The notes below the pieces were generated by a model. It did no database searches, was not told where the DNA came from, and saw nothing but the letters and a program-made list of their open reading frames with translations. Shown here piece after piece: positions 2,357 to 64,000 of a DNA stretch of 64,000 nucleotides. Both the position numbers and the translations under genes were made by a program. The stretch comes from Spirochaetota bacterium (GTDB lineage Bacteria > Spirochaetota > UBA4802 > JAFGJZ01): the NCBI GenBank assembly GCA_023396615.1, contig JAEWVM010000009.1, positions 966 to 64,965 on the forward strand, written 5' to 3'. How positions within the stretch are numbered: position 1 is the stretch's first letter; each line of letters starts with the position of its first letter.

Positions 2357-3991
2357 ATGAGCTTTTTTTCAAAGCATAAATATCTGATTCTAATTGCATT
2401 ATCTGCCGTTTTGCTGAGAATTCCGGCCTATTTTAATGATTATTATGACGTTGATGAGCTTTCTGCAATAGTTCAGACTAAACAGTACTTTTCCGGTCTC
2501 ACACCCGGAATGGATTTCAAAGAAAGCAAGCACCCTCTGTATCACGCTCTGTTTAAAGTCAGTTACGGCATTAATGAAGATTACGGCTGGGTTATACTGC
2601 ATATTCTCGTTTCTTTAATTGTTGCACTTACCGGAGCTGTAATATACAGAACAACCAAGGAAATTACCGATAAATCAAAAACAGCTTTTACCGCAGGAAT
2701 ACTCTATACTATTATGATCTGTTCATTCAACAGATACTTTATGGCTACGAATGGTGAAATTGTATACAATTTGCCCGTATCAGTTGGAGCATTATCGATA
2801 GTGCTTTTTCTAAAAACTGATAAAATGTTAAATAAGATATTATATCTGTTGCTGTTAGCTTCCTCTTCTGCAATAAGTGCAGGAATAAAATTTCACGGTT
2901 TAATTATTTCCATAATCGCGGTTTTCTTTTTTCTGTTTATTCTTCCTTTGAGAGAAGGAAGAATAAACAGAAAATATGCAATAACAATGTTGTCTGTTTT
3001 ATCTGTGTTTATTGCAATTTTTGCAGCAGATTATTTTATTTATGGAAAAATTACACACAAAATTATCAACGATATTTCATCAAAACTTCGATATGCGACT
3101 CTTGTCTACGGATTGGAACCTCTCTCTCTAATTTTAAAATTCATTCACAGACAGGGTTTGCTGACAATTTGGCATCCATTAATCTGGATTTCATTTTTTG
3201 CTTTTACTATAAGTTTTTTCAAAAATAGAGATTTTTTTAAAACTGAAAGAACCCGTTTATTTATAATAATATCGGCAATTATCACCTATCTGATGGTTTT
3301 TGCTGGAGGTAAACGGCTTTATTTTCACTATTTCATGACATCATATCCGTTCATATGCATGGTAAGTTCATTTTATATTGAAGAAAGCCGGAATAAAATA
3401 TCATTTTTCTTCAGAAAACATTTCAAAAAAATATTGCTAATACCTGCTTTTTTCTTTTTCCTTTTTAACGTAAAAGATGTAATCATTAAACATACCGCAC
3501 CAGAATTGTTTATATTTGAATCGAAAGCATCATACTACTTTAGACTTATTGCTCTTGGAACAACCAATGATTACCTTATGCCGGATAAGCTTTACCACAA
3601 CCTTATTGACTATATAAAAGAAAAAACAATGAAAGAAGATAAAATTTTCGTATGGGGTGACGGCGCTTATATTTATTATTTTTCAGACAGACTACCTGCA
3701 GCATATCACATGTGGCCGAAAGGAACTATAGTGGGAATAACTTCAGCATACAAATCTCAAAATAAAATTGAAATGAAACAGGCTATCCATAATGAAAAAG
3801 CTATTATATTCAACATAGAAAAGTATGATGCAAAACTTATTATCGATACATCCGAAGCAGCAACATCTAAAATGGGATCAATATCTCCATTCTCTTACAA
3901 AATGACACCATTAGTGGATAAATACATCAAATCACATTACAAATTTGAGAAAGAAATAGATAAATTTAAAATTTACAGAAAAATAGAATAA
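2357..3991 (+). CDS. GT39/ArnT-like polytopic membrane glycosyltransferase (PMT_2-like) with C-terminal soluble domain
   Basis: About 11 predicted TM helices over 400 aa, then a hydrophilic ~140 aa tail. Architecture of dolichyl/undecaprenyl-phosphate-sugar dependent glycosyltransferases. Confidence 0.5.
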   Translation: MSFFSKHKYLILIALSAVLLRIPAYFNDYYDVDELSAIVQTKQYFSGLTPGMDFKESKHPLYHALFKVSYGINEDYGWVILHILVSLIVALTGAVIYRTTKEITDKSKTAFTAGILYTIMICSFNRYFMATNGEIVYNLPVSVGALSIVLFLKTDKMLNKILYLLLLASSSAISAGIKFHGLIISIIAVFFFLFILPLREGRINRKYAITMLSVLSVFIAIFAADYFIYGKITHKIINDISSKLRYATLVYGLEPLSLILKFIHRQGLLTIWHPLIWISFFAFTISFFKNRDFFKTERTRLFIIISAIITYLMVFAGGKRLYFHYFMTSYPFICMVSSFYIEESRNKISFFFRKHFKKILLIPAFFFFLFNVKDVIIKHTAPELFIFESKASYYFRLIALGTTNDYLMPDKLYHNLIDYIKEKTMKEDKIFVWGDGAYIYYFSDRLPAAYHMWPKGTIVGITSAYKSQNKIEMKQAIHNEKAIIFNIEKYDAKLIIDTSEAATSKMGSISPFSYKMTPLVDKYIKSHYKFEKEIDKFKIYRKIE

Positions 3992-4024: not shown

Positions 4025-4636
4025 TTATTTCTGGATGTCTATAATCTCTTCCTTTTTAGCCTCAGCTTCTTTTATTTTTTCTTCTTTTGTCTTCTTTACT
4101 TTATAACGATCTGTATTTAAGGTAGCCAGACGGAATTCATAAGCGGAGAAATTAATAGAACGCTCAATTACACCTTTATTGTAATTCTGCAGTTCTGAGG
4201 GTTTTCCCAGAATACTTCCACGGTAATCTCTGATAAAAACCTTATCGAATATTTTTTTCTCTCCGGCTTTTACTTCAAATTTAACTTTATTCATTAGTTC
4301 TTCATTAAACATCCCGACTTTAAACACCGTTCCATCTTGACGTACAACGGCTACAACTGTATAAATTCCCGGTTCATAATTTATTACGATATTTCCGTCC
4401 TCATCTTTTATCTCTGATGGAACAACAACTCCCTTTTTTAGATCATTAGCGCCATCCAGCTTCTTGAAATATATACGCTTAGGCGCGAATTGAAGTCGTG
4501 TATCCTCATCTTCGATAAGAAATGTCCCGCCGAAGACCATTTTTGATGATAGATCAAACTCGCGTACATTCTTTGAACAAGAAAAAATCAGCAAAGGCAT
4601 AATAAAAACCAAAAGCTTCTTCATAATTTTCCTCAC
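4025..4636 (-). CDS. Lipoprotein, unknown function
   Basis: Lipobox LLIFSCS after a basic N-terminus; lysine-rich C-terminus. Confidence 0.5.
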   Translation of the reverse strand: MRKIMKKLLVFIMPLLIFSCSKNVREFDLSSKMVFGGTFLIEDEDTRLQFAPKRIYFKKLDGANDLKKGVVVPSEIKDEDGNIVINYEPGIYTVVAVVRQDGTVFKVGMFNEELMNKVKFEVKAGEKKIFDKVFIRDYRGSILGKPSELQNYNKGVIERSINFSAYEFRLATLNTDRYKVKKTKEEKIKEAEAKKEEIIDIQK

Positions 4637-4731
4637 ATTAAATATTAATTGTCAGAATCAGATGCATCAAGCAATTAGTAAACCAATTATTAAAAAGCAA
4701 AGTTCCGATTAATTCCCAAAAAAATCAGAAA

Positions 4732-5832
4732 TCAATAAAACTGTCTCATTTCTCCCTTCAGGGATTCGCCGCTGATATCTGCAAATTCTTTTAGCAGCTC
4801 TTTTTGTCTTGCATTAATCTTTTTAGGAACAGTTACATTTATCCTTACTAATAAATCTCCTTTTCCATGCGAACCGATGTAAGGCATTCCGCTTCCGCGA
4901 AGCCGGAATATCTGATTATTCTCGGTTCCTTGCGGAATTTTCATTTTCAGTGTCTGATTATAAATTGTAGGAACTTCTATATCGCCGCCGATGACCGCAA
5001 GAGGAAAGGAAATATCGACCGTACATACCAGATCATTTCCGCTTCTTTCAAAATATTTATGCTTTTTAACATGAATCAGGACATAAAGATCTCCCGGGAT
5101 TCCTCCCCCCTGAGCGTGTTCTCCTTCGCCCGTTATCTTCAAGCGTGAACCCGATTCAACACCCGCCGGAATTTTAATAGTTATTTTGCGTTTCTTAGCA
5201 ATAAGTCCTGTCCCGTTACATGATTTGCACGGTGAAGAAATAATTTTCCCCTGACCATGGCATTTATAGCATGTCTGTGTAACAGAAAAAAATCCCTGAG
5301 CCTGACGAATTTGACCGACTCCGTTACACACCGGACAAGTGATTGGTTTTGAACCGGATGCAGCACCAGTCCCTTCACATGAAGTACATGGTTCGTGACG
5401 CGGAATTTCTATCTGTATTTCTTTGCCGGTTGCAGCCTCTTCAAGTTCTACCGCTAAATCATACTGCAAATCGGATCCGCGTTTCTGACGCTTGCCGCGC
5501 GAAGAAAAACCTGAACCAAAAAAACCTTCAAAAATATCACCGAAATCAAAATCTCCGAAAATATCTGAAAAGTCGCGGTATGCGCCTTTCCCGAAACCGT
5601 CAAAATTACCGACACCTTCATGACCGAACTGATCATACTGCGCCCGTTTTTTAGAGTCTCTCAATACTTCGTATGCTTCGGTGGCTTCCTTGAATTTTTC
5701 TTCAGCCTCGGCATTTCCCTTATTTCTATCCGGATGATATTTTAAAGCAAGCTTACGGTATGCTGATTTGATCTCATCATCGTTAGCACTCTTCGCTACA
5801 CCGAGTATCTCATAGTAATCTCTTTTAGCCAA
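4732..5832 (-). CDS. dnaJ: Chaperone DnaJ
   Basis: J-domain DYYEILGV...HPD, G/F-rich region, four CxxCxGxG zinc-finger repeats. Confidence 0.95.
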
Positions 5833-5898
5833 AGTCTTTCTCCATAAAAATGCGAAAACCGCATTTAATTAAACAGGCGGCAAACGCCGCCTGAATGG

Positions 5899-7833
5899 TT
5901 ATTTTTTATCCTCATCAACAACTTCGTAATCCGCATCGTAAACTTTTCCATCATCAGACTTTGAAGCATTCCCTTCAGAAGAAGATCCTGCATCAGCATT
6001 CTGCTGAGCGCCGGAAGTCTGTTGAGCAGATGCAGCTTCTTTGTACATGCGCTCTGCGAACTTATGGCTTGCAGTCTCAAAAGCTGTTTTCGCAGTTTTG
6101 ATTTTTTCTACATCATTAGATTCAAGAGCAGATCTGAGATTGACAATTTCTTTCTCAATCTGTTCTTTTTCAGCTGCTTCAACCTTTGAAGCATTGTCTT
6201 TTAAAAGTTTTTCAACCGAATAAATCATATTGTCAGATTCATTCTTAATCTCAATAAGTTCTTTTGCTTTTTTATCTTCGTCGGCATGAGCCTCAGCATC
6301 TCTAACCATTTTATTGATCTCATCTTCATTCAATCCGCTTGAAGATTCAATTCTTATCTTCTGCTCCTTGCCTGTTCCGAGATCTTTGGCCGAAACATGA
6401 ACAATACCGTTAGCATCAATATCAAAAGTAACTTCAACCTGCGGAACTCCTCTCGGTGCAGGCGGAATATCCGAAAGCTCAAAACGTCCAAGAGTTCTAT
6501 TTTGCGCTGCAAGCTGGCGTTCCCCCTGAAGAACATGAATAGTTACAGCAGGCTGATTGTCAGACGCTGTTGAAAATATCTGACTCTTTCTTGTCGGAAT
6601 GGTTGTGTTTCTTTCGATAAGTTTTGTCATTACACCGCCGAGAGTTTCGATACCGAGAGAAAGAGGTGTAACGTCAAGAAGAAGAACATCATGAACATCT
6701 CCTGCAAGAACTCCGCCCTGGATACCGGCGCCTACCGCTACAACTTCATCAGGATTAACTCCCTTATGAGGTTCTTTGCCGAATATGCGTTTAACAAGTT
6801 CCTGAACAGCAGGAATACGTGTAGAACCGCCGACAAGAATAACTTCATCAATATCAGCAGCAGTGAGACCAGCGTCTCTAAGTGCAAGCTGACAAGGTTC
6901 AGCAGAAGATTCAATAAGATCACCACACATCTGTTCAAATTTTGATCTCGAAAGATTTATTACTAGATGCTTCGGTCCGCTCTGATCAGCTGTCAAAAAC
7001 GGAATATTGATCTCAGTTTCCATTTTATTGGAAAGCTCTATTTTTGCTTTTTCAGCAGATTCCTTAAGACGCTGAAGAGCCATCTTATCCTTGGAAACAT
7101 CGATACCTGTCTGCTTCTTGAATTCATCAATAAGCCACTGCATTATTCTAAGGTCGAAGTCATCGCCGCCGAGATGTGTATTCCCGTTAGTAGATTTTAC
7201 TTCAAATACGCCATCGCCGAGTTCAAGAACAGAAACGTCAAAAGTACCTCCGCCCAAATCGTAAACAACGATCTTATGATTTTTCTTAGCCTTATCAAGA
7301 CCGTATGCCAATGCCGCAGCTGTCGGCTCGTTTATTATACGTTCAACCTCAAGACCGGCAATTTTACCGGCATCTTTTGTTGCCTGACGCTGTGAATCAT
7401 TAAAATAAGCAGGAACCGTTATAACAGCCTTTGTTACGGGTTCACCGAGATAATCTTCGGCAGTCTGCTTCATCTTCTGCAAAATACGTGCAGAAATCTC
7501 CTGAGGCGAAAACTTACCTGAAACGGTTTTCACATTAACGCCGTTCTTGCCGTCATCTTCGATATCATAAGGAACTAGTTTCTTTTCTTCGGTAATTTCC
7601 GAAAACGCACGCCCCATAAATCTTTTTACTGAACGGATTGTATTTTCAGGATTCGTTATAATCTGATTCTTTGCGACCTGACCTACAAGTCTTTCCCCTT
7701 TCTCGGTATACGCAACGATTGAAGGAGTTGTTCTCTGTCCTTCTGAATTCTGAATGACAATCGGCTCACCGCCTACCATTACCGAAACACATGAATTTGT
7801 TGTTCCGAGGTCAATACCGATTATTTTGCTCAT
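5899..7833 (-). CDS. dnaK: Chaperone DnaK (Hsp70)
   Basis: [22 protein letters not shown], and a glutamate/aspartate-rich C-terminus. Confidence 0.97.
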
Positions 7834-7859
7834 AAAAATCTCCTTAATAGTTTATTTTA

Positions 7860-8489
7860 TCAGTTCTGCTTCGGCATAGGTTTTGAAACCTTTACCTTGG
7901 CGCTTCTTATTACAAAATCTTCAAGCTTATATCCTTTCTGATATACTTTTGTAACGGTGTCTGTATCGATTCCGTCCTGCATATCAATTTCAACAGCTTC
8001 ATGGCAATTCGGATCAAACGGACAATTTTCGGCTTCAATTTCAGAAATAAAATGCTTCTGAAGCAAAGAAGCTATTTCCTTAGCTATAATAACAACTCCT
8101 TCACTGAATGCCTTTTTGACATCTTCAGCAGAGGATTCAGCCGACATAGAATTTGCAGCTTCAACCGTACGGATCAAATCATCATTGATCTTTATTATCT
8201 CTCCCGCAATTCCGACAACAGACATTTTCTTATTTTGTTCTTCTGTCTTCGCGATTCGTTTTCTAAAATTGTCAAAATCGGCCTTGTTTCTAAGGAGAAC
8301 ATCCTTCAAAGATGCAATTTCCTGATCTTTTTTGCACAGTTCAGCCTTAAGCAGCTCGACTTCATTTGAACACGAACACTCGGAATCTGCACAAGCTTCG
8401 TTAGCCGAAGCATCACATCCGTCTTCAGACTGAACGCTTTCAGCTGAATCTTCAATCTTCTCTTCTCTTTCTTTTTCTTCTTTCTTCAT
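7860..8489 (-). CDS. grpE: Nucleotide exchange factor GrpE
   Basis: Coiled-coil N-terminus, ...DFDNFRKR... GrpE signature; position between hrcA and dnaK. Confidence 0.9.
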   Translation of the reverse strand: MKKEEKEREEKIEDSAESVQSEDGCDASANEACADSECSCSNEVELLKAELCKKDQEIASLKDVLLRNKADFDNFRKRIAKTEEQNKKMSVVGIAGEIIKINDDLIRTVEAANSMSAESSAEDVKKAFSEGVVIIAKEIASLLQKHFISEIEAENCPFDPNCHEAVEIDMQDGIDTDTVTKVYQKGYKLEDFVIRSAKVKVSKPMPKQN

Positions 8490-8501
8490 TATCTCACCTT
8501 A

Positions 8502-9533
8502 CTATCTTGATACACTTGAAAGAAAGTTTGTCACAAGCCTGCCCGTATAATCGACAAGAGGAACAACCTTTCTATAATCCATACGGGTCGGGCCTATAAC
8601 TCCCAAAACTCCCGCATTTTTATTTCCAATTTTATAACAACACGCGACAAGACTGCATCCGACGACATAACTGTTATCAATTTCTGAACCTATAAAAGTC
8701 TGAACAGAATCAGAGTCCATAGTCCGCTGCATAATTTCTGCTAAATTTTTCTTTTCTTCGATAAGGCGGAGAAAAGAAGTTAAAACTTCTTTCTCAATCA
8801 TGTCAGGAATATGCAGGATATTTTCAATTCCTTCTATAAAAACATCCTGCTCATTAATCGAATTCATAGCAAGCTCTACAACATCAAGAGATATCTGTTC
8901 GTTTGAACCTGAGTATTTCTGCCTCATCTTGGCAAGTATATCCGTTTTGATGTCAAATATTGAAAAACCGGCAAACTCACTTGATAAAATATTCGAAGTT
9001 GAAAACAATATATCCCTTGTTACTCTTTCTGAAATCGTGATCTTTTTATTTATAACCACACCTGTCCGGGTAACAATAATTAAAAGAACAGTCTCGGGAT
9101 CGATTGAAACAAGTTCCACCTGCTTAACAACAGTAAAATCCGGATTTGGAGTTAAAACAATACCTGCAAGCTTTGAAACAGAAGAAAGCATTTTAGTTAT
9201 CGATATAAACATCTTATCCAAATGCACTTCGCTTCGCATGAAATCATCTCGAATATATCCGTAATCCAGATCACTGATATCGTAAGAATCAGAAAGAAAA
9301 TCAACAAAGTACCTATATCCTGTATCTGTCGGGATTCTTCCAGCTGAAGTATGCGGATGTGTCAGAAAACCCAAAGACTCAAGATCATACATTATGTTTC
9401 TCATAGTTGCAGGAGAAATGGTGAAAGAATATTTTTGAACAAAAGAGCGTGACCCTACTGGTCGCCCAGTAGCGATATATTCCTGTACAATCGATTTTAA
9501 TACTTCCGATTCTCTTTCAGTTACAGCTCTCAT
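8502..9533 (-). CDS. hrcA: Heat-inducible transcription repressor HrcA
   Basis: RAVTERESEVLKSIVQEYIATGRPVGSR winged-helix N-terminus. Likely ATG start at 9533 with AGGTG RBS; the ORF track extends to 9539 via GTG. Confidence 0.9.
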   Translation of the reverse strand: MRAVTERESEVLKSIVQEYIATGRPVGSRSFVQKYSFTISPATMRNIMYDLESLGFLTHPHTSAGRIPTDTGYRYFVDFLSDSYDISDLDYGYIRDDFMRSEVHLDKMFISITKMLSSVSKLAGIVLTPNPDFTVVKQVELVSIDPETVLLIIVTRTGVVINKKITISERVTRDILFSTSNILSSEFAGFSIFDIKTDILAKMRQKYSGSNEQISLDVVELAMNSINEQDVFIEGIENILHIPDMIEKEVLTSFLRLIEEKKNLAEIMQRTMDSDSVQTFIGSEIDNSYVVGCSLVACCYKIGNKNAGVLGVIGPTRMDYRKVVPLVDYTGRLVTNFLSSVSR

Positions 9534-10229: not shown

Positions 10230-10421
10230 ATGAGTATGCCTGGATTCGGAGAATTAGTCGTTATCTTTTTAATAATACTTTTTGTTTTCGGGGCCGGTAA
10301 AATCCCGAGAATTGCCAGAGAAATTGGCTCAGGTATAAGAGACTTCAAAAAGGCAATGAACGGCGACGATTCAAGCGAAACCGAAGAGACGAAAACGAAT
10401 AAAAAAAGCAAAAAAGCATGA
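10230..10421 (+). CDS. tatA: Sec-independent translocase subunit TatA/E
   Basis: MSMPGFGELVVIFLIILFVFGAGKIPRIAREIGSGIRDFKKA: N-terminal TM plus amphipathic helix. GGGTGA RBS before the ATG at 10230; the ORF track starts earlier at 10182. Confidence 0.75.
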   Translation: MSMPGFGELVVIFLIILFVFGAGKIPRIAREIGSGIRDFKKAMNGDDSSETEETKTNKKSKKA

Positions 10422-11269: not shown

Positions 11270-11360
11270 ATTCAGAGATTTCAGCTTTGATTCAGCTGTA
11301 AAATTTTTTCTTTACAAATTAAGCGCAGACATATAGTATCCATAACTATCGGAGACTCTT

Positions 11361-11684
11361 ATGCAAATTAACTTTCGTGACCAAGGTGAACACAAGATTC
11401 TATCTATAAACGGAGAAGTAGACCTCTACAATGTCGGTGAACTAAAAAAAATACTTTTTGCAGCAACAGACGGATCGAATAAAAGCGTGGTCATCGACAT
11501 GAGAGACGTAAATTATATGGATTCCTCCGGAATCGGTGCTCTTGTGGCAGGACAAAAAAAAATGAAGGCTCTAGGGGGGAAATTCCTTCTTCTCAATATC
11601 AGTGACGATGTTTTAAACATCCTTAAGCTGGCTACTCTTGATAAATTTTTTACAATACTGGAAGACGAGTCCGAACTGGTTTAA
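11361..11684 (+). CDS. STAS-domain anti-sigma-factor antagonist (SpoIIAA/RsbV-like)
   Basis: 107 aa; ...VVIDMRDVNYMDSSGIGALV... with the phosphorylatable Ser in DSSG context. Confidence 0.75.
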   Translation: MQINFRDQGEHKILSINGEVDLYNVGELKKILFAATDGSNKSVVIDMRDVNYMDSSGIGALVAGQKKMKALGGKFLLLNISDDVLNILKLATLDKFFTILEDESELV

Positions 11685-60134: not shown

Positions 60135-62435
60135 ATGAAAAGACTCAGAATCGGCCTCCAAACTGCGAGACTGGAATACGGCTACGGTGTAAAATTATGG
60201 CAGGGAGCGCTGATTGCCGCAAAACAAAGAGATGCCGATCTAATAGTATTTCCCGGGCGCAATCTGAATTCTCCACACGGATATGATTATCAATATAACA
60301 GCATTTTCAGCTTGATGAATCTTGATAATATTGATTCGCTCATACTGATTACAACACTTATCAGCAATTACGTTAACAAAGAAGAGTTAAATAAATTCCG
60401 CATGAATTTTTCCGATCTTCCAATAATCAGTGTCGGAGCAAGAATTGAAAATACTCCCAGCATTCTCATAGACAACCGGTCCGGAATCAGAGATCTCGTA
60501 AAACATCAAATTGAAGTTCACGGCGCAAAGAGAATCGCATTCATCAAAGGACCTGAAAATAACTGGGAAGCCGACGAAAGATATCAGGCATATAAATTGG
60601 AATTAGAAGCGAACGGAATTCCTTTTGATGAAAAACTTATCGGCAACGGAGATTTTACTTCTCACAGTGTAGCTCCCGCGATTGAGAAAATATTGAATTC
60701 AAACGATCTTCTTCCTGAAGTATTTATGTTTGCAAATGATGAAATGGCAATTCATGGAATGAGGCTTCTCAGAGAAAAAGGCATAGATATTCCCGGAGAT
60801 ACTTCTATTACGGGATTTGATGATATACGTGAAGCGGCAGCACAGTCTGTTCCGATAACCACAGTATCTCAGCCGCTCGCGGAGATGATCGACCGCGCGG
60901 TAAATCTTGCTGTTGAACTTGCGCAGGGCAAAGAAACCCCTTTTGAAACAATTCTTCCAACACACGCCGTTATCAGATCATCATGCGGGTGCATTGCCCA
61001 TTGCGTAAATGACGTCGTAAATATAAGAAAAATTAATCTTCCCAAAGATGATAAATATGACATGTGCAGTCAGGTTCTCAAGATTCTTGATGAACACAAT
61101 TTTGACAACTATTCCGGCAAAAAAACAAGGCGTGCAAATGTCGAACAGATCATTCGCAAAATTATATCTTTATCATCCGGCAATAAAAACGAAACAGCCG
61201 ATGAAAGCGATATTTTTTCATTTTTCAATTATTTCAGTCGAATGCTGATGGAAGAATCTTCACAGGGACTTCAGCCGGAACATTGGCAGATTCCGCTTTC
61301 AATTCTTTCTGAGTTTGTTAATTCCTCACGTGCAACAGATATTATGCTTGATCAGTTCAGGTTTCTCGTACGCGCCTGCGCGGTTCTAACCCTTGATTCA
61401 GCGCTCAACATGCGCGTTGCGAATCAATATGAATTTGAAAGAATAATCGAACACATTCATGATTTAGAATACGATATCTCTTCTGTAGTCGATTTGAATT
61501 CTCTCATACAAATTCTCGTAAGAAAGCTACCAAGCGTGGGAATCAACACCTTCATTCTGTCAAAATATAAAACCGATTGGGAACAGAAGCGCGATGACGA
61601 ATGGTCAGGACTCCCGGATCTAAAATGCGTGGCCTCTATGTGCGACGGCCGTGAAATGAATACACTTGAACTAAATGACTGTGGTGCATTAAAGTGGATT
61701 GCATCTCCAGACAGATCTGAAAATGACAGAAGCAGGGCGTTTGTAATTTATCCCCTGTTTTTCCGCGAAAATCATTACGGAATTGCAGCCTATGAACTTT
61801 CGCTTCAAAGCGGGTTCATATACGAAAGTCTGACGACCCAGATATCAGGAGTTTTAAAACGTATATTTCTATATGACGCGAAAGACAAAGCCGAACAGGG
61901 TCTTCGGCAGGCAATGCGCGATCTCGAAATTTTTAATGCACAGCTCAGTCAGCTTTCAATAACAGATGAACTGACAGGATTGTTTAACAGGCGCGGTTTT
62001 ATGAAAATGGCAGAACACTCATCGTTTCTCGCGCGTCAAATGGGACAGCCCTCCATGCTGATTTTCGCAGATCTCGATAAACTGAAAAAAATCAACGACA
62101 CTTACGGACACGACGAAGGCGACTGGGCGATAAAAACAGTTTCCGAAGCTTTGAAAAAAACATTCCGATCCAATGATGTGGTCGCGCGTCTCGGCGGAGA
62201 TGAATTTACTGTTTTCGCGACAAATATGAAAGAAGAACTTCTTCCAAGATCTCAGTCCCGCATAAATGATTTTTTAAAACAAAGATGTACCGAAAAACAA
62301 AAGGAATATGAACTGACTATAAGCATCGGTCATGTTATCTGCCCGGTTAACGAATCACTGAGTATCGAAGAGTATATGCAGATAGCCGACAGCCGTTTGT
62401 ATGAACAGAAGAAAAAGAAACATACTGAGAGCTGA
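60135..62435 (+). CDS. Diguanylate cyclase with N-terminal LacI/PBP1-type sugar-binding domain (no HTH) and C-terminal GGDEF
   Basis: Periplasmic-binding-protein type-1 fold residues (...PGDTSITGFDDI...), then a ~250-aa unassigned region. GGDEF domain with RSND I-site and intact GGDEF. Confidence 0.8.
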   Translation: MKRLRIGLQTARLEYGYGVKLWQGALIAAKQRDADLIVFPGRNLNSPHGYDYQYNSIFSLMNLDNIDSLILITTLISNYVNKEELNKFRMNFSDLPIISVGARIENTPSILIDNRSGIRDLVKHQIEVHGAKRIAFIKGPENNWEADERYQAYKLELEANGIPFDEKLIGNGDFTSHSVAPAIEKILNSNDLLPEVFMFANDEMAIHGMRLLREKGIDIPGDTSITGFDDIREAAAQSVPITTVSQPLAEMIDRAVNLAVELAQGKETPFETILPTHAVIRSSCGCIAHCVNDVVNIRKINLPKDDKYDMCSQVLKILDEHNFDNYSGKKTRRANVEQIIRKIISLSSGNKNETADESDIFSFFNYFSRMLMEESSQGLQPEHWQIPLSILSEFVNSSRATDIMLDQFRFLVRACAVLTLDSALNMRVANQYEFERIIEHIHDLEYDISSVVDLNSLIQILVRKLPSVGINTFILSKYKTDWEQKRDDEWSGLPDLKCVASMCDGREMNTLELNDCGALKWIASPDRSENDRSRAFVIYPLFFRENHYGIAAYELSLQSGFIYESLTTQISGVLKRIFLYDAKDKAEQGLRQAMRDLEIFNAQLSQLSITDELTGLFNRRGFMKMAEHSSFLARQMGQPSMLIFADLDKLKKINDTYGHDEGDWAIKTVSEALKKTFRSNDVVARLGGDEFTVFATNMKEELLPRSQSRINDFLKQRCTEKQKEYELTISIGHVICPVNESLSIEEYMQIADSRLYEQKKKKHTES

Positions 62436-62477
62436 TGGAATCTGTTATTGATGATTCAGGGCGTTATGCAATAATTT

Positions 62478-62513
62478 AAAGGGCATCCTATGCCCTTTAC
62501 CCGGTTTTGCCGG
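62478..62513 (+). terminator. Terminator-like hairpins after the GGDEF gene
   Basis: AAAGGGCAT-CCT-ATGCCCTTT, then CCGG-TTTTG-CCGG. Confidence 0.55.
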
Positions 62514-62763
62514 ATGCTCCGGACGCGCGTTGCGAGGCGCTATTATTTTGACATCCTGCCAAATATTGAAGCGCTTCGATGGCGGTTCTCGTAACGCCTT
62601 AGTATCAGCCTTCAGCGTACAATTTGCGTTCTTACTCTGTTTATTTATCTTTTTCTGAATTGCTTTGCCCACTTTGGATATTTTCATTAACATTCATTTC
62701 GAAATTTCATTACACGGATGAAAGCGGCATGTGTCAGGGGAATACTGTCACTGAAGAGATAAA

Positions 62764-62994
62764 TTATTGATTCCTTTCAATCTTTTGATTATTATGATTT
62801 AATTTAATATTCTTTTCTTTTTTAAATCCACCCAAATGATATATTAAGATAGCAGCATATCCTAACAATAAGATGTATATTAAATATTTTCTTATTTCTT
62901 TAACACCAAATCCTGAAATAAAACCATCAAGTATAATCAAAATGCCCATAATAATTGTATAAGCTATTAAAGTTGATATCATGTCCATCAACAT
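62764..62994 (-). CDS. Small two-TM membrane protein with holin-like features
   Basis: AAGGAG RBS 8 nt upstream; MLMDM N-terminus (three Met in five residues), two TM helices, and a highly charged C-terminal tail (KKEKNIKLNHNNQKIERNQ). Confidence 0.45.
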   Translation of the reverse strand: MLMDMISTLIAYTIIMGILIILDGFISGFGVKEIRKYLIYILLLGYAAILIYHLGGFKKEKNIKLNHNNQKIERNQ

Positions 62995-63457
62995 TACTCA
63001 CTCCTTATAATCCCGAACGGTATTCCGCCTGAAAATCTATCAATTAATTACAATTTCATCCCTGAGTTTTTAAAACTTATGCTCTTTCTGTTGCTTCCAT
63101 TTCTGCACTTCTGCGCAATAATTCATAGTATTCAGATTATCTTCATGCCCGCAATATAACATTTTACTTTTCAAATAATTACTGCGCCTATCCGCAAATA
63201 ATTTTAACCCGCTAATTCCATCACAACCTTCTACTCCATGAATGAATAAAGGAAAATGACATTGGTTTATTATTTAATTTTCATTTCATAATATTATTAC
63301 ACGTTCATTCACTTCGCTCAGTATACGCGCATATGTTCTTGTTGATATCAATCAGATCTATCCAATTTATTCGACTCTTACGGCTCCGACTATCACGTAC
63401 CAATAGGCGATTATCAAATCTTTCAGTATTTTCTTTATATCATTTTGTCTTCGTAAG

Positions 63458-64000
63458 CTACGGCAACTCATTGATATAAATCAGTCTAATATCATTTTCA
63501 TTACATCTTTCTACAACAAATGTTTCTCTGCCAGAAGATTCATAATACAAAAGCTCAACCTTCACATATTTCAGAAAACCATCTTTATCTTTTTTGTTTT
63601 CAATCATAACTTCAATAGCTTTATTTTCAAGCTTATAGCTGATTTTATTTTCAGGTAAATTTATCAATCCTATTTTTGGATAAATTGCTATTAAACGATA
63701 TAAAAGAAATCCATCCAGAACAGACGCATTAGTAATTGTGAGATAAGTTTTAAAAAAATAATCATTCTCATTCTGAGATTCCAATTGACCTTTGCTTAAC
63801 AGATATTTTTCATTATATTCTTTTAAGCTATACCTTTTCATTGAATCAATAAATTCACTCTTTCTTGGTGGCGGGAAGATACTCGTATATCCGCTGAAAA
63901 TATATCCTGTTTTATTTTTATAATTAACTTTTAGCCAATTCCCCTTTATATTATCTACGACAAGATAATCCTTAGTATTTTCAATTAATTCAAATTTTAC
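63458..64000 (-). CDS. Protein with SH3b-like domain, N-terminally truncated by the window end
   Basis: The reading frame is open from the window edge (…VVDNIKGNWLKVNYKNKTGYIFSGYTS…, an SH3b-like motif) through the 127-aa ORF in the track. The real start is beyond position 64000. Confidence 0.4.
   Translation of the reverse strand, partial: VKFELIENTKDYLVVDNIKGNWLKVNYKNKTGYIFSGYTSIFPPPRKSEFIDSMKRYSLKEYNEKYLLSKGQLESQNENDYFFKTYLTITNASVLDGFLLYRLIAIYPKIGLINLPENKISYKLENKAIEVMIENKKDKDGFLKYVKVELLYYESSGRETFVVERCNENDIRLIYINELP

Follow-up and report, generated by a model that had tools for sequence, protein, structure and literature searches.

Two candidate orphan Rhs-toxin immunity genes on a strain-variable islet of an uncultured spirochaete

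The stretch of DNA analyzed here, hereafter the window, comprises 64,000 nucleotides of a Spirochaetota bacterium (positions 966 to 64,965 of contig JAEWVM010000009.1, assembly GCA_023396615.1). At its right edge, beyond a GGDEF diguanylate cyclase gene that ends at position 62435, lie two genes (Table 1), one encoding a 76-aa protein with two transmembrane (TM) helices and the other, cut by the end of the window, a protein with an SH3b domain. A preliminary description drawn from the sequence proposed that this region might be either a remnant of a phage lysis cassette or the boundary of an island. Comparison with other metagenome contigs, in which homologues of both genes follow Rhs toxins, suggests that the two are probably orphan immunity genes against Rhs/YD toxins, carried on a strain-variable islet.

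Inspection of the 76-aa open reading frame (ORF) confirmed the strong ribosome-binding site that had been noted for it (AAGGAG, 6 nt ahead of the ATG), as well as two TM helices and a charged C terminus in its product. The hydrophobic segments span residues ∼5-31 and ∼37-57, with 19-residue Kyte-Doolittle means of up to 2.2, and six of the 20 residues of the tail are Lys or Arg. The multi-methionine start MLMDM is present, but its interpretation as a dual start is not sustained: across six clusters of homologues the third residue varies among Met, Ile, Thr, and Ala, whereas the fourth is an invariant Asp, and no basic residue separates the two methionines. These six clusters, found in an index of 5.8 billion proteins, retain the protein as an intact ORF at 72-100% identity. 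The only one with a named source is labelled Spirochaetota, as are neighboring genes of the window. Asp-23 and His-53 are invariant across the clusters and, being predicted to be membrane-embedded, are candidate functional residues. The ratio of nonsynonymous to synonymous substitution rates (dN/dS) was 0.34-0.76 in this short gene, indicating purifying selection.

The complete sequence of the neighboring gene was obtained from three metagenome contigs (L001-L003) retrieved by exact-protein look-up of the 76-aa product. These contigs differ from the window by 2 or 3 mismatches in 1.7 kb and extend up to 1.1 kb further. The full-length protein has 234 residues, comprising a signal peptide (MFKKLFILTLFLHCFSSIAYS; h-region hydropathy of 2.09, helix 3-15 in the structure model), an SH3b domain, and ∼135 more residues. 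The SH3b-like motif recognized earlier in the truncated gene is genuine, as the SH3_3 match rises from 21.6 bits in the window to 42 bits at full length (Pfam cut-off, 27), covering residues 34-93, and the long C-terminal part after it was likewise correctly recognized. This C-terminal domain is alpha+beta and non-enzymatic in the model and gave generic structural matches only. Searches of the full protein with Pfam and NCBIfam returned SH3_3 alone and no muralytic domain. The gene is under purifying selection (dN/dS 0.17-0.21), and two further clusters of the protein were found in the 5.8-billion-protein index.

A HMMER search of 1.84 billion representative sequences with the 234-aa protein gave 1182 matches at E ≤0.001. 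Among the matches listed, most align with the SH3b domain only; a subset of proteins of ∼220-250 aa aligns over the full length at 23-35% identity, and in these Pfam again sees SH3_3 only. The family of ∼235-aa proteins combining SH3b and alpha/beta domains comprises at least 20 clusters at 50% identity from several phyla. A search of GTDB genomes located a single Desulfobacterales locus (L016), with no toxin nearby. In a plasmid database, the 76-aa protein had no match and the 234-aa protein only weak SH3 matches on Leptospira plasmids, and the context of P0014 (L022) was uninformative. All clusters of the two families in the 5.8-billion-protein index come from metagenomes or metagenome-assembled genomes (MAGs).

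Table 1. Features at the right edge of the window (positions are those of the window)
Feature	Positions	Strand	Basis or description
76-aa inner-membrane protein, two TM helices; candidate orphan immunity gene against CT2	62764-62994	-	ORF, ribosome-binding site, hydropathy, homologues
Exported SH3b + alpha/beta-domain protein, 3' 543 nt (180 codons + stop)	63458-64000	-	Gene extends ∼162 nt beyond window end
Spacer between the two genes	62995-63457		463 bp; without convincing ORF, Rfam match, or detectable toxin pseudogene
Spacer between GGDEF gene and 76-aa gene	62436-62763		42% GC; hairpin 62478-62498; 82-aa minus-strand ORF
Left copy of ∼30-nt direct repeat, CGTGTAATAATATTATGAAATGAAAATTAA	63274-63303	-	L001 1814-1843; alignment to L006 repeats
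Right copy of the same direct repeat	62687-62716	-	80% identical; 587 nt from left copy

The arrangement of a small two-TM protein with a basic C terminus beside an SH3b protein resembles that of a class II holin paired with an SH3b endolysin. Class II holins are exemplified by the S pinholin of phage 21, and the two helices and charged tail are shared with them, although this feature is generic. The region had been read on this basis as a decayed lysis cassette, in which the 76-aa protein would be the holin and the SH3b protein a remnant of the cell-wall-binding part of the endolysin. A full SH3b protein without a muralytic domain had been set beforehand as the outcome that would overturn this reading. 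The complete protein carries a signal peptide and has no such domain, and by this result the lysis reading fails. Nor was the holin identity upheld. No holin model in Pfam, PHROGs, or NCBIfam matched the 76-aa protein; its best Pfam match was a 2TM family at E 0.06, below cut-off, no PHROGs match was better than E 0.035, and a single one, to an Rz-like spanin family at E 0.11, belonged to the lysis category. The N terminus, with its unconserved Met-3, also lacks a basic residue and has no dual start resembling those of lambda or phage 21.

Phage associations were equally absent. Searches of 50,697 phage genomes by tblastn and scans of IMG/VR viral contigs revealed no relative of either protein, and no phage genes stood beside either gene in any context examined. 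The flanks in the window lineage, as read in a sister strain (L005), are instead genes for GGDEF, DUF362, PFK, phosphatase, polyphosphate kinase, and sigma-70 proteins. Neither gene is a remnant, as both retain an intact ORF that is under purifying selection. In contrast to class II holin/endolysin pairs, the two genes have no phage context, catalytic lysin domain, or conserved dual start, lie 463 bp apart, are found independently of each other in other genomes, and show no sequence or hidden Markov model relationship to such pairs. The lysis-cassette interpretation is thus close to refuted and retains hardly any probability. A small two-TM protein beside an SH3b protein is insufficient to call a lysis cassette, and a plausible false positive is corrected here.

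Homologues of both genes were found directly downstream of, and co-oriented with, Rhs C-terminal toxins, the position expected of immunity genes. On a contig from an anaerobic digester (L004), an SH3b gene of 86% identity begins 18 nt past the stop codon of a 527-aa ORF on the same strand. Within this ORF, an RHS repeat and an Rhs-associated core (TIGR03696, 78.9 bits, residues 226-308) are joined by a C-terminal Peptidase_M23 domain (48.3 bits). Its core ends in ...NPIMFNDPDGH, with a DPDG boundary, and in a PDB sequence search this part of the core aligned with the C termini of the TccC, YenC2, and Rhs shells. On four further contigs (L011-L014), a 76-aa gene of 72% identity begins 4 nt past the stop of a 389-aa ORF, which consists of an Rhs core (68.5 bits, ending in ...NNPIKYVDPDGN) and an uncharacterized C-terminal domain of ∼195 aa, here termed CT2. 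Ahead of it lies a 269-aa ORF combining an Rhs core end and a C-terminal domain (CT), with its own exported 214-aa downstream protein; this layout is typical of an orphan rhs-CT/immunity array. The TIGR03696 scores, a third being 46.6 bits, all exceed the cut-off of 32.5, and both DPDG and DPNG motifs are visible.

The relationship between these two arrangements was revealed by alignment of L004 and L012. The Rhs core ends (L012 8873-9259 and L004 8820-9206) are 86% identical at the nucleotide level and the downstream flanks (L012 10239-10496 and L004 10761-11015) 91% identical, whereas the block between them is unrelated, consisting of the M23 domain and SH3b gene in L004 and of CT2 and the 76-aa gene in L012. 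Consistent with this, the two Rhs ORFs share 77% identity across the 180 residues leading to the DPxG boundary, beyond which they diverge. Modular exchange of a toxin together with its downstream gene is the signature of a polymorphic toxin. Thus, both an upstream ORF with an Rhs core and co-variation of the module, as known for Rhs immunity, are found at the homologue loci. Because toxin and downstream gene are swapped as one block, the two genes of the window are alternative occupants of one immunity slot in a single Rhs family.

A second pairing of SH3b protein and M23 domain was found on L015. Here, P0011, the closest full-length relative of the 234-aa protein (35% identity), is encoded tail-to-tail 14 nt from a gene fragment with an M23 domain (54.6 bits). 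This domain is 50% identical to that of the L004 toxin (E 9e-42), and the two have the common tail ...VTPRNYQRRRDLLDPTS[FY]LD. L015 additionally holds a second paralogue of the SH3b family and the remnant of a second M23 C terminus. At these identities (50%/35%), L015 represents an independent, co-diverging second case. The signal peptide of the SH3b protein would, moreover, place it in the compartment of a peptidoglycan-targeting M23 partner. An alternative account of such pairings is that the SH3b protein is an M23 helper (a chaperone, activator, or peptidoglycan-targeting subunit; compare LytM-factor partnerships) and that the 76-aa protein, linked to the HicAB genes beside it in L006-L014, is an addiction peptide or small membrane toxin, but this is considered very unlikely.

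The window itself contains the candidate immunity genes without a cognate toxin. When the Rhs core and the toxins of L004 and L012 were used as tblastn queries, neither the window nor L001-L005 gave a match, and no ORF of Rhs size is present in the 64 kb. As the window holds neither a toxin nor the remnant of one, the two genes are best read as orphan immunity genes.

The suggestion that the right edge marks an island boundary was supported by atypical GC content, cassette-limited homology, a step in divergence from the sister strain, and assembly breaks. Homology to other genomes gives out within 4-20 nt of each gene. That of the window to L004 is limited to the SH3b gene (L001 947-1662, comprising the gene with 8 nt ahead of its start codon and 3 nt past its stop), and that to L006 and L012 is limited to the 76-aa gene (62760-63014). 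Divergence from L005 is ∼1.8% over the SH3b gene and the gap that follows it and ∼8-9% from the 76-aa gene rightward through the GGDEF gene, with the step located at window ∼62980-63005 (L001 ∼2111-2140), which is where the 76-aa gene starts. The lower divergence of the left part implies that it was exchanged more recently. No part of the region is better conserved than the supposedly non-coding 463-bp gap, which is 98.3% identical to that of L005. Within the SH3b gene, a 40-nt cluster of 11 mismatches to L005 (L001 1362-1401) suggests a micro-recombination patch. Homology between L001 and L005 is lost 206 nt upstream of the SH3b gene, and four independent assemblies end within 1 kb of this loss. 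No recombinase was found in the 64-kb window or the 1.1-kb extension.

Copies of a ∼30-nt direct repeat bracket the 76-aa gene (Table 1). These copies are the overlapping ends (core ∼22-30 nt) of two halves (63282-63343 and 62643-62716 in the window) of a sequence that is uninterrupted in L006. In that contig, a sequence of ∼140 nt occurs twice as a direct repeat (8777-8916 and 11281-11420; 96% identical), bracketing a 2.4-kb block that encodes HicAB, the 76-aa homologue, a 63-aa TM ORF, and a BamE-like lipoprotein. The split halves flanking the 76-aa gene in the window look like a recombination or insertion scar. The 140-nt repeat is absent from the element represented by L011.

With respect to base composition, the AT-rich right edge that had been described is real, but its onset lies at ∼62.7 kb and not at the GGDEF stop codon. 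The interval 62700-64000 has a GC content of 0.294, the minimum among 1300-bp intervals of the 64 kb (mean 0.387, S.D. 0.027), the fall being from ∼0.41 to 0.26-0.31. By contrast, the first intergenic stretch (62436-62763) is not AT-rich, with a GC content of 0.424. The AT-richness is located mainly in the two genes, given their values of 0.229 (76-aa gene) and 0.274 (the part of the SH3b gene in the window); the gap between them has a value of 0.333. The ORF-poor stretch of ∼460 bp reported previously corresponds to this gap, although the ORFs enclosed in it reach 34 aa rather than 30, and a 48-aa ORF overlaps its edge.

Several observations weigh against orphan immunity. Because the window holds no toxin, the assignment draws wholly on gene position in other contigs, and toxin-linked contexts are few: one element type for the 76-aa gene (L011-L014 and L020-L021), and L004 and L015 for the SH3b family. 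The 76-aa gene occurs in three distinct contexts, and in two of these, the window lineage and L006-L010, no toxin lies beside it. The Rhs ORFs are 5'-truncated orphans, and no full-length Rhs protein or delivery system was observed. CT2 has no recognizable fold, TM segment (maximum hydropathy 1.05), or Pfam match; a PDB sequence search gave nothing meaningful for it, and a scan of metagenomes returned the same element only, with no relatives beyond. The main weakness of the argument is that distant members of the SH3b family that retain the C-terminal domain (23-31% identity; L016-L019) stand alone in unrelated contexts, which means that the wider family could have a general envelope role; these members are equally compatible with orphan immunity and with a broader envelope function. 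A homologue search with the M23 C-terminal domain yielded mostly stand-alone M23 proteins, not polymorphic-toxin carriers.

The active-site motif of the toxin-borne M23 domains is a further point against this reading. M23 peptidases usually carry an HxH motif. The Rhs-borne domains (L004 8400-9983, residues ∼470-480; L015 1695-2186) keep HxxxD (HAGCD) but read SMLH[I/F]EMY, in which Met replaces the first His of HxH. On sequence grounds, the active site of the candidate enzyme may be atypical or its activity altered.

In an alternative explanation, both genes encode ordinary, lineage-specific envelope proteins of a variable region, their adjacency to Rhs genes reflecting shared recombination hotspots. 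The 234-aa product would then be associated with peptidoglycan in the periplasm and the 76-aa product would be a small protein of the membrane, each with a housekeeping or unknown role. In favor of this, the distant SH3b members in Desulfobacterales L016 and in L017-L019 stand alone in unrelated contexts, the 76-aa gene has no toxin beside it in the window lineage and L006-L010, and no family annotation is available. However, co-oriented genes starting 4 and 18 nt after an Rhs CT occupy the canonical position of immunity genes, and toxin and downstream gene are exchanged jointly between conserved flanks. Recurrence of the M23/SH3b pairing at an independent locus speaks against the alternative as well, and cassette-limited homology is unlike that of vertically inherited housekeeping genes. 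The envelope-protein explanation is therefore regarded as possible but clearly the less probable of the two.

In the orphan-immunity model, the islet would be small, accessory, and strain-variable, comprising 62.7-64.0 kb of the window and at least 1.1 kb past its end. The 234-aa protein would be exported to the periplasm by its Sec signal peptide and would there neutralize an incoming M23 peptidoglycan endopeptidase, the C-terminal toxin of an Rhs protein, with its C-terminal alpha+beta domain blocking the enzyme and its SH3b domain tethering it either to peptidoglycan (the sacculus) or to the toxin. The 76-aa protein, predicted to form a two-helix hairpin in the inner membrane, would neutralize CT2 at that location. 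Antidotes kept without their toxins may protect the cell against neighbors firing either toxin. A broader extrapolation, which must be considered unlikely as a whole, is that proteins of ∼235 aa with a signal peptide, SH3b domain, and alpha/beta domain are widespread, undescribed periplasmic inhibitors of M23 endopeptidases. Their SH3b domain would anchor them on peptidoglycan and so provide protection at the substrate, not only by toxin capture, and Rhs-M23 toxins would be an unrecognized antibacterial weapon among anaerobic-digester spirochaetes.

Further features were observed in the window and its extension. Immediately past the GGDEF stop codon lies a hairpin, AAAGGGCAT-CCT-ATGCCCTTT. An 82-aa ORF on the minus strand of the same spacer (62445-62693) was considered as a gene and rejected, as it has no family match, is uncalled in L001-L005, and contains insertions or deletions relative to L005, the alignment of the whole spacer to that strain having 7 gap columns. 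An Rfam search of 62300-64000 gave no match, and no tRNA was found in the window, its extension, or the key loci. The only other stretch of the window with a GC content of ≤0.30 over 1300 bp, 2357-3991, is unrelated to the right edge; its product is a membrane protein of 544 aa, whose match to the glycosyltransferase family PMT_2 stays below threshold (23.9 bits; cut-off 26.1). Beyond the window, L001 280-675 (∼440-840 nt past its end) contains a 131-aa ORF with a lipoprotein-like signal (…FIVSC) and no family match, which is found in L001 and L002 and is missing at the same place in L005. It could encode a strain-variable exported protein, possibly another immunity-type cassette.

The contigs that carry the homologues have additional features of their own. 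In L011 (1-16266; also L012-L014), the same gene order recurs every 10,778 bp, as would be seen for an element of ∼10.8 kb that is either circular or tandemly duplicated. Each unit encodes HicA/HicB, a helix-turn-helix protein, an unrelated 76-aa ORF, ParA, a 945-aa DnaG-type primase, and two tyrosine recombinases, followed by the two Rhs-CT/immunity pairs, both orphan. Such an element, possibly a small plasmid or an integrative one, may ferry Rhs toxin/immunity modules. Next to the toxin/immunity module, on its downstream side, L004 (10777-10887) and L012 (10257-10367) share a conserved, very acidic ORF of 36 aa (consensus M[LF][IL]KKEKIEDLEF[IM]EV[ED]PEDEELR..IVMEEEDKALS), which the window lacks; its DNA is also kept after the 76-aa gene in L006 (∼10252-10345). 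Upstream of the 76-aa homologue in L006-L010, positions 4500-8700 hold a run of small exported or lipoprotein-like ORFs, including an Imm74-like protein (25 bits, just under the cut-off), a TPR lipoprotein, and a 217-aa SH3b protein related to the 234-aa protein in the SH3 domain only. This run resembles an immunity-gene island. On L023 (4001-5307), the gene for an M23 protein sharing 39% identity with the Rhs M23 toxin overlaps by 4 nt the next gene, which encodes an exported protein of 168 aa. This second protein matched no family and bears no relationship to the SH3b proteins; it could serve the same M23 subfamily as another type of immunity protein or partner.

Both orphan immunity genes and orphan rhs-CT/immunity arrays are well documented (PMC3150448, PMC3967940, PMC10539506, PMC12247911), and orphan immunity genes have been described as protecting against the toxins of others in Serratia and Bacteroidales (PMC10539506, PMC10470768, PMC12247911). 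The arrays of E. coli, Dickeya, and Salmonella (Poole et al. 2011, PMC3150448; Koskiniemi et al. 2014, PMC3967940) share their layout with L004 and L011-L014, namely a 5'-truncated Rhs core end, a DPxG boundary, a variable CT, and a tightly spaced small downstream gene, toxin and immunity gene being swapped as a module between conserved flanks. Unlike these arrays, the window, from an uncultured Spirochaetota MAG, has the downstream genes only and no Rhs sequence, and both candidate immunity families as well as the toxin domains (M23 peptidase and CT2) fall outside the Pfam Imm families. Effector-less immunity genes are likewise found in the defense islands of Bacteroidales (PMC10470768, PMC12247911) and among the orphan immunities to the Serratia Rhs NADase (PMC10539506). 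As in acquired defense islands, the genes of the window lie on compositionally atypical, apparently horizontally exchanged DNA, with protection presumed; unlike the Bacteroidales islands, they number two rather than forming a long array, and no recombinase accompanies them.

Type VI secretion is known to deploy M23 domains as antibacterial effectors, and the Acinetobacter Tpe/Tse4 groups (PMC6833914) also represent a periplasm-acting M23 toxin requiring a periplasmic immunity protein. In those effectors the architecture is LysM-M23, whereas here M23 is the C-terminal toxin of an Rhs protein and the candidate immunity protein bears the SH3b domain. The searched part of Zhang et al. 2012 mentions neither M23 nor the toxin domains and two families described here. 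No description of an Rhs-M23 toxin or an SH3b-containing immunity protein was found in a non-exhaustive literature search, in which type VI papers were judged by title and abstract. The kind of feature is known, as polymorphic toxins and orphan immunity, whereas these two protein families are undescribed.

Because the concept is well established, the advance is incremental. If the assignment is correct, it would add CT2, an M23 peptidase toxin borne by an Rhs protein, and two candidate immunity families not yet described, all from a poorly studied phylum of anaerobic digesters. The SH3b-containing candidate would provide a lead for natural inhibitors of M23 (lysostaphin-like) peptidases. Carriage of orphan immunity genes would, moreover, extend beyond the Proteobacteria and Bacteroidales, in which it has mostly been studied so far.

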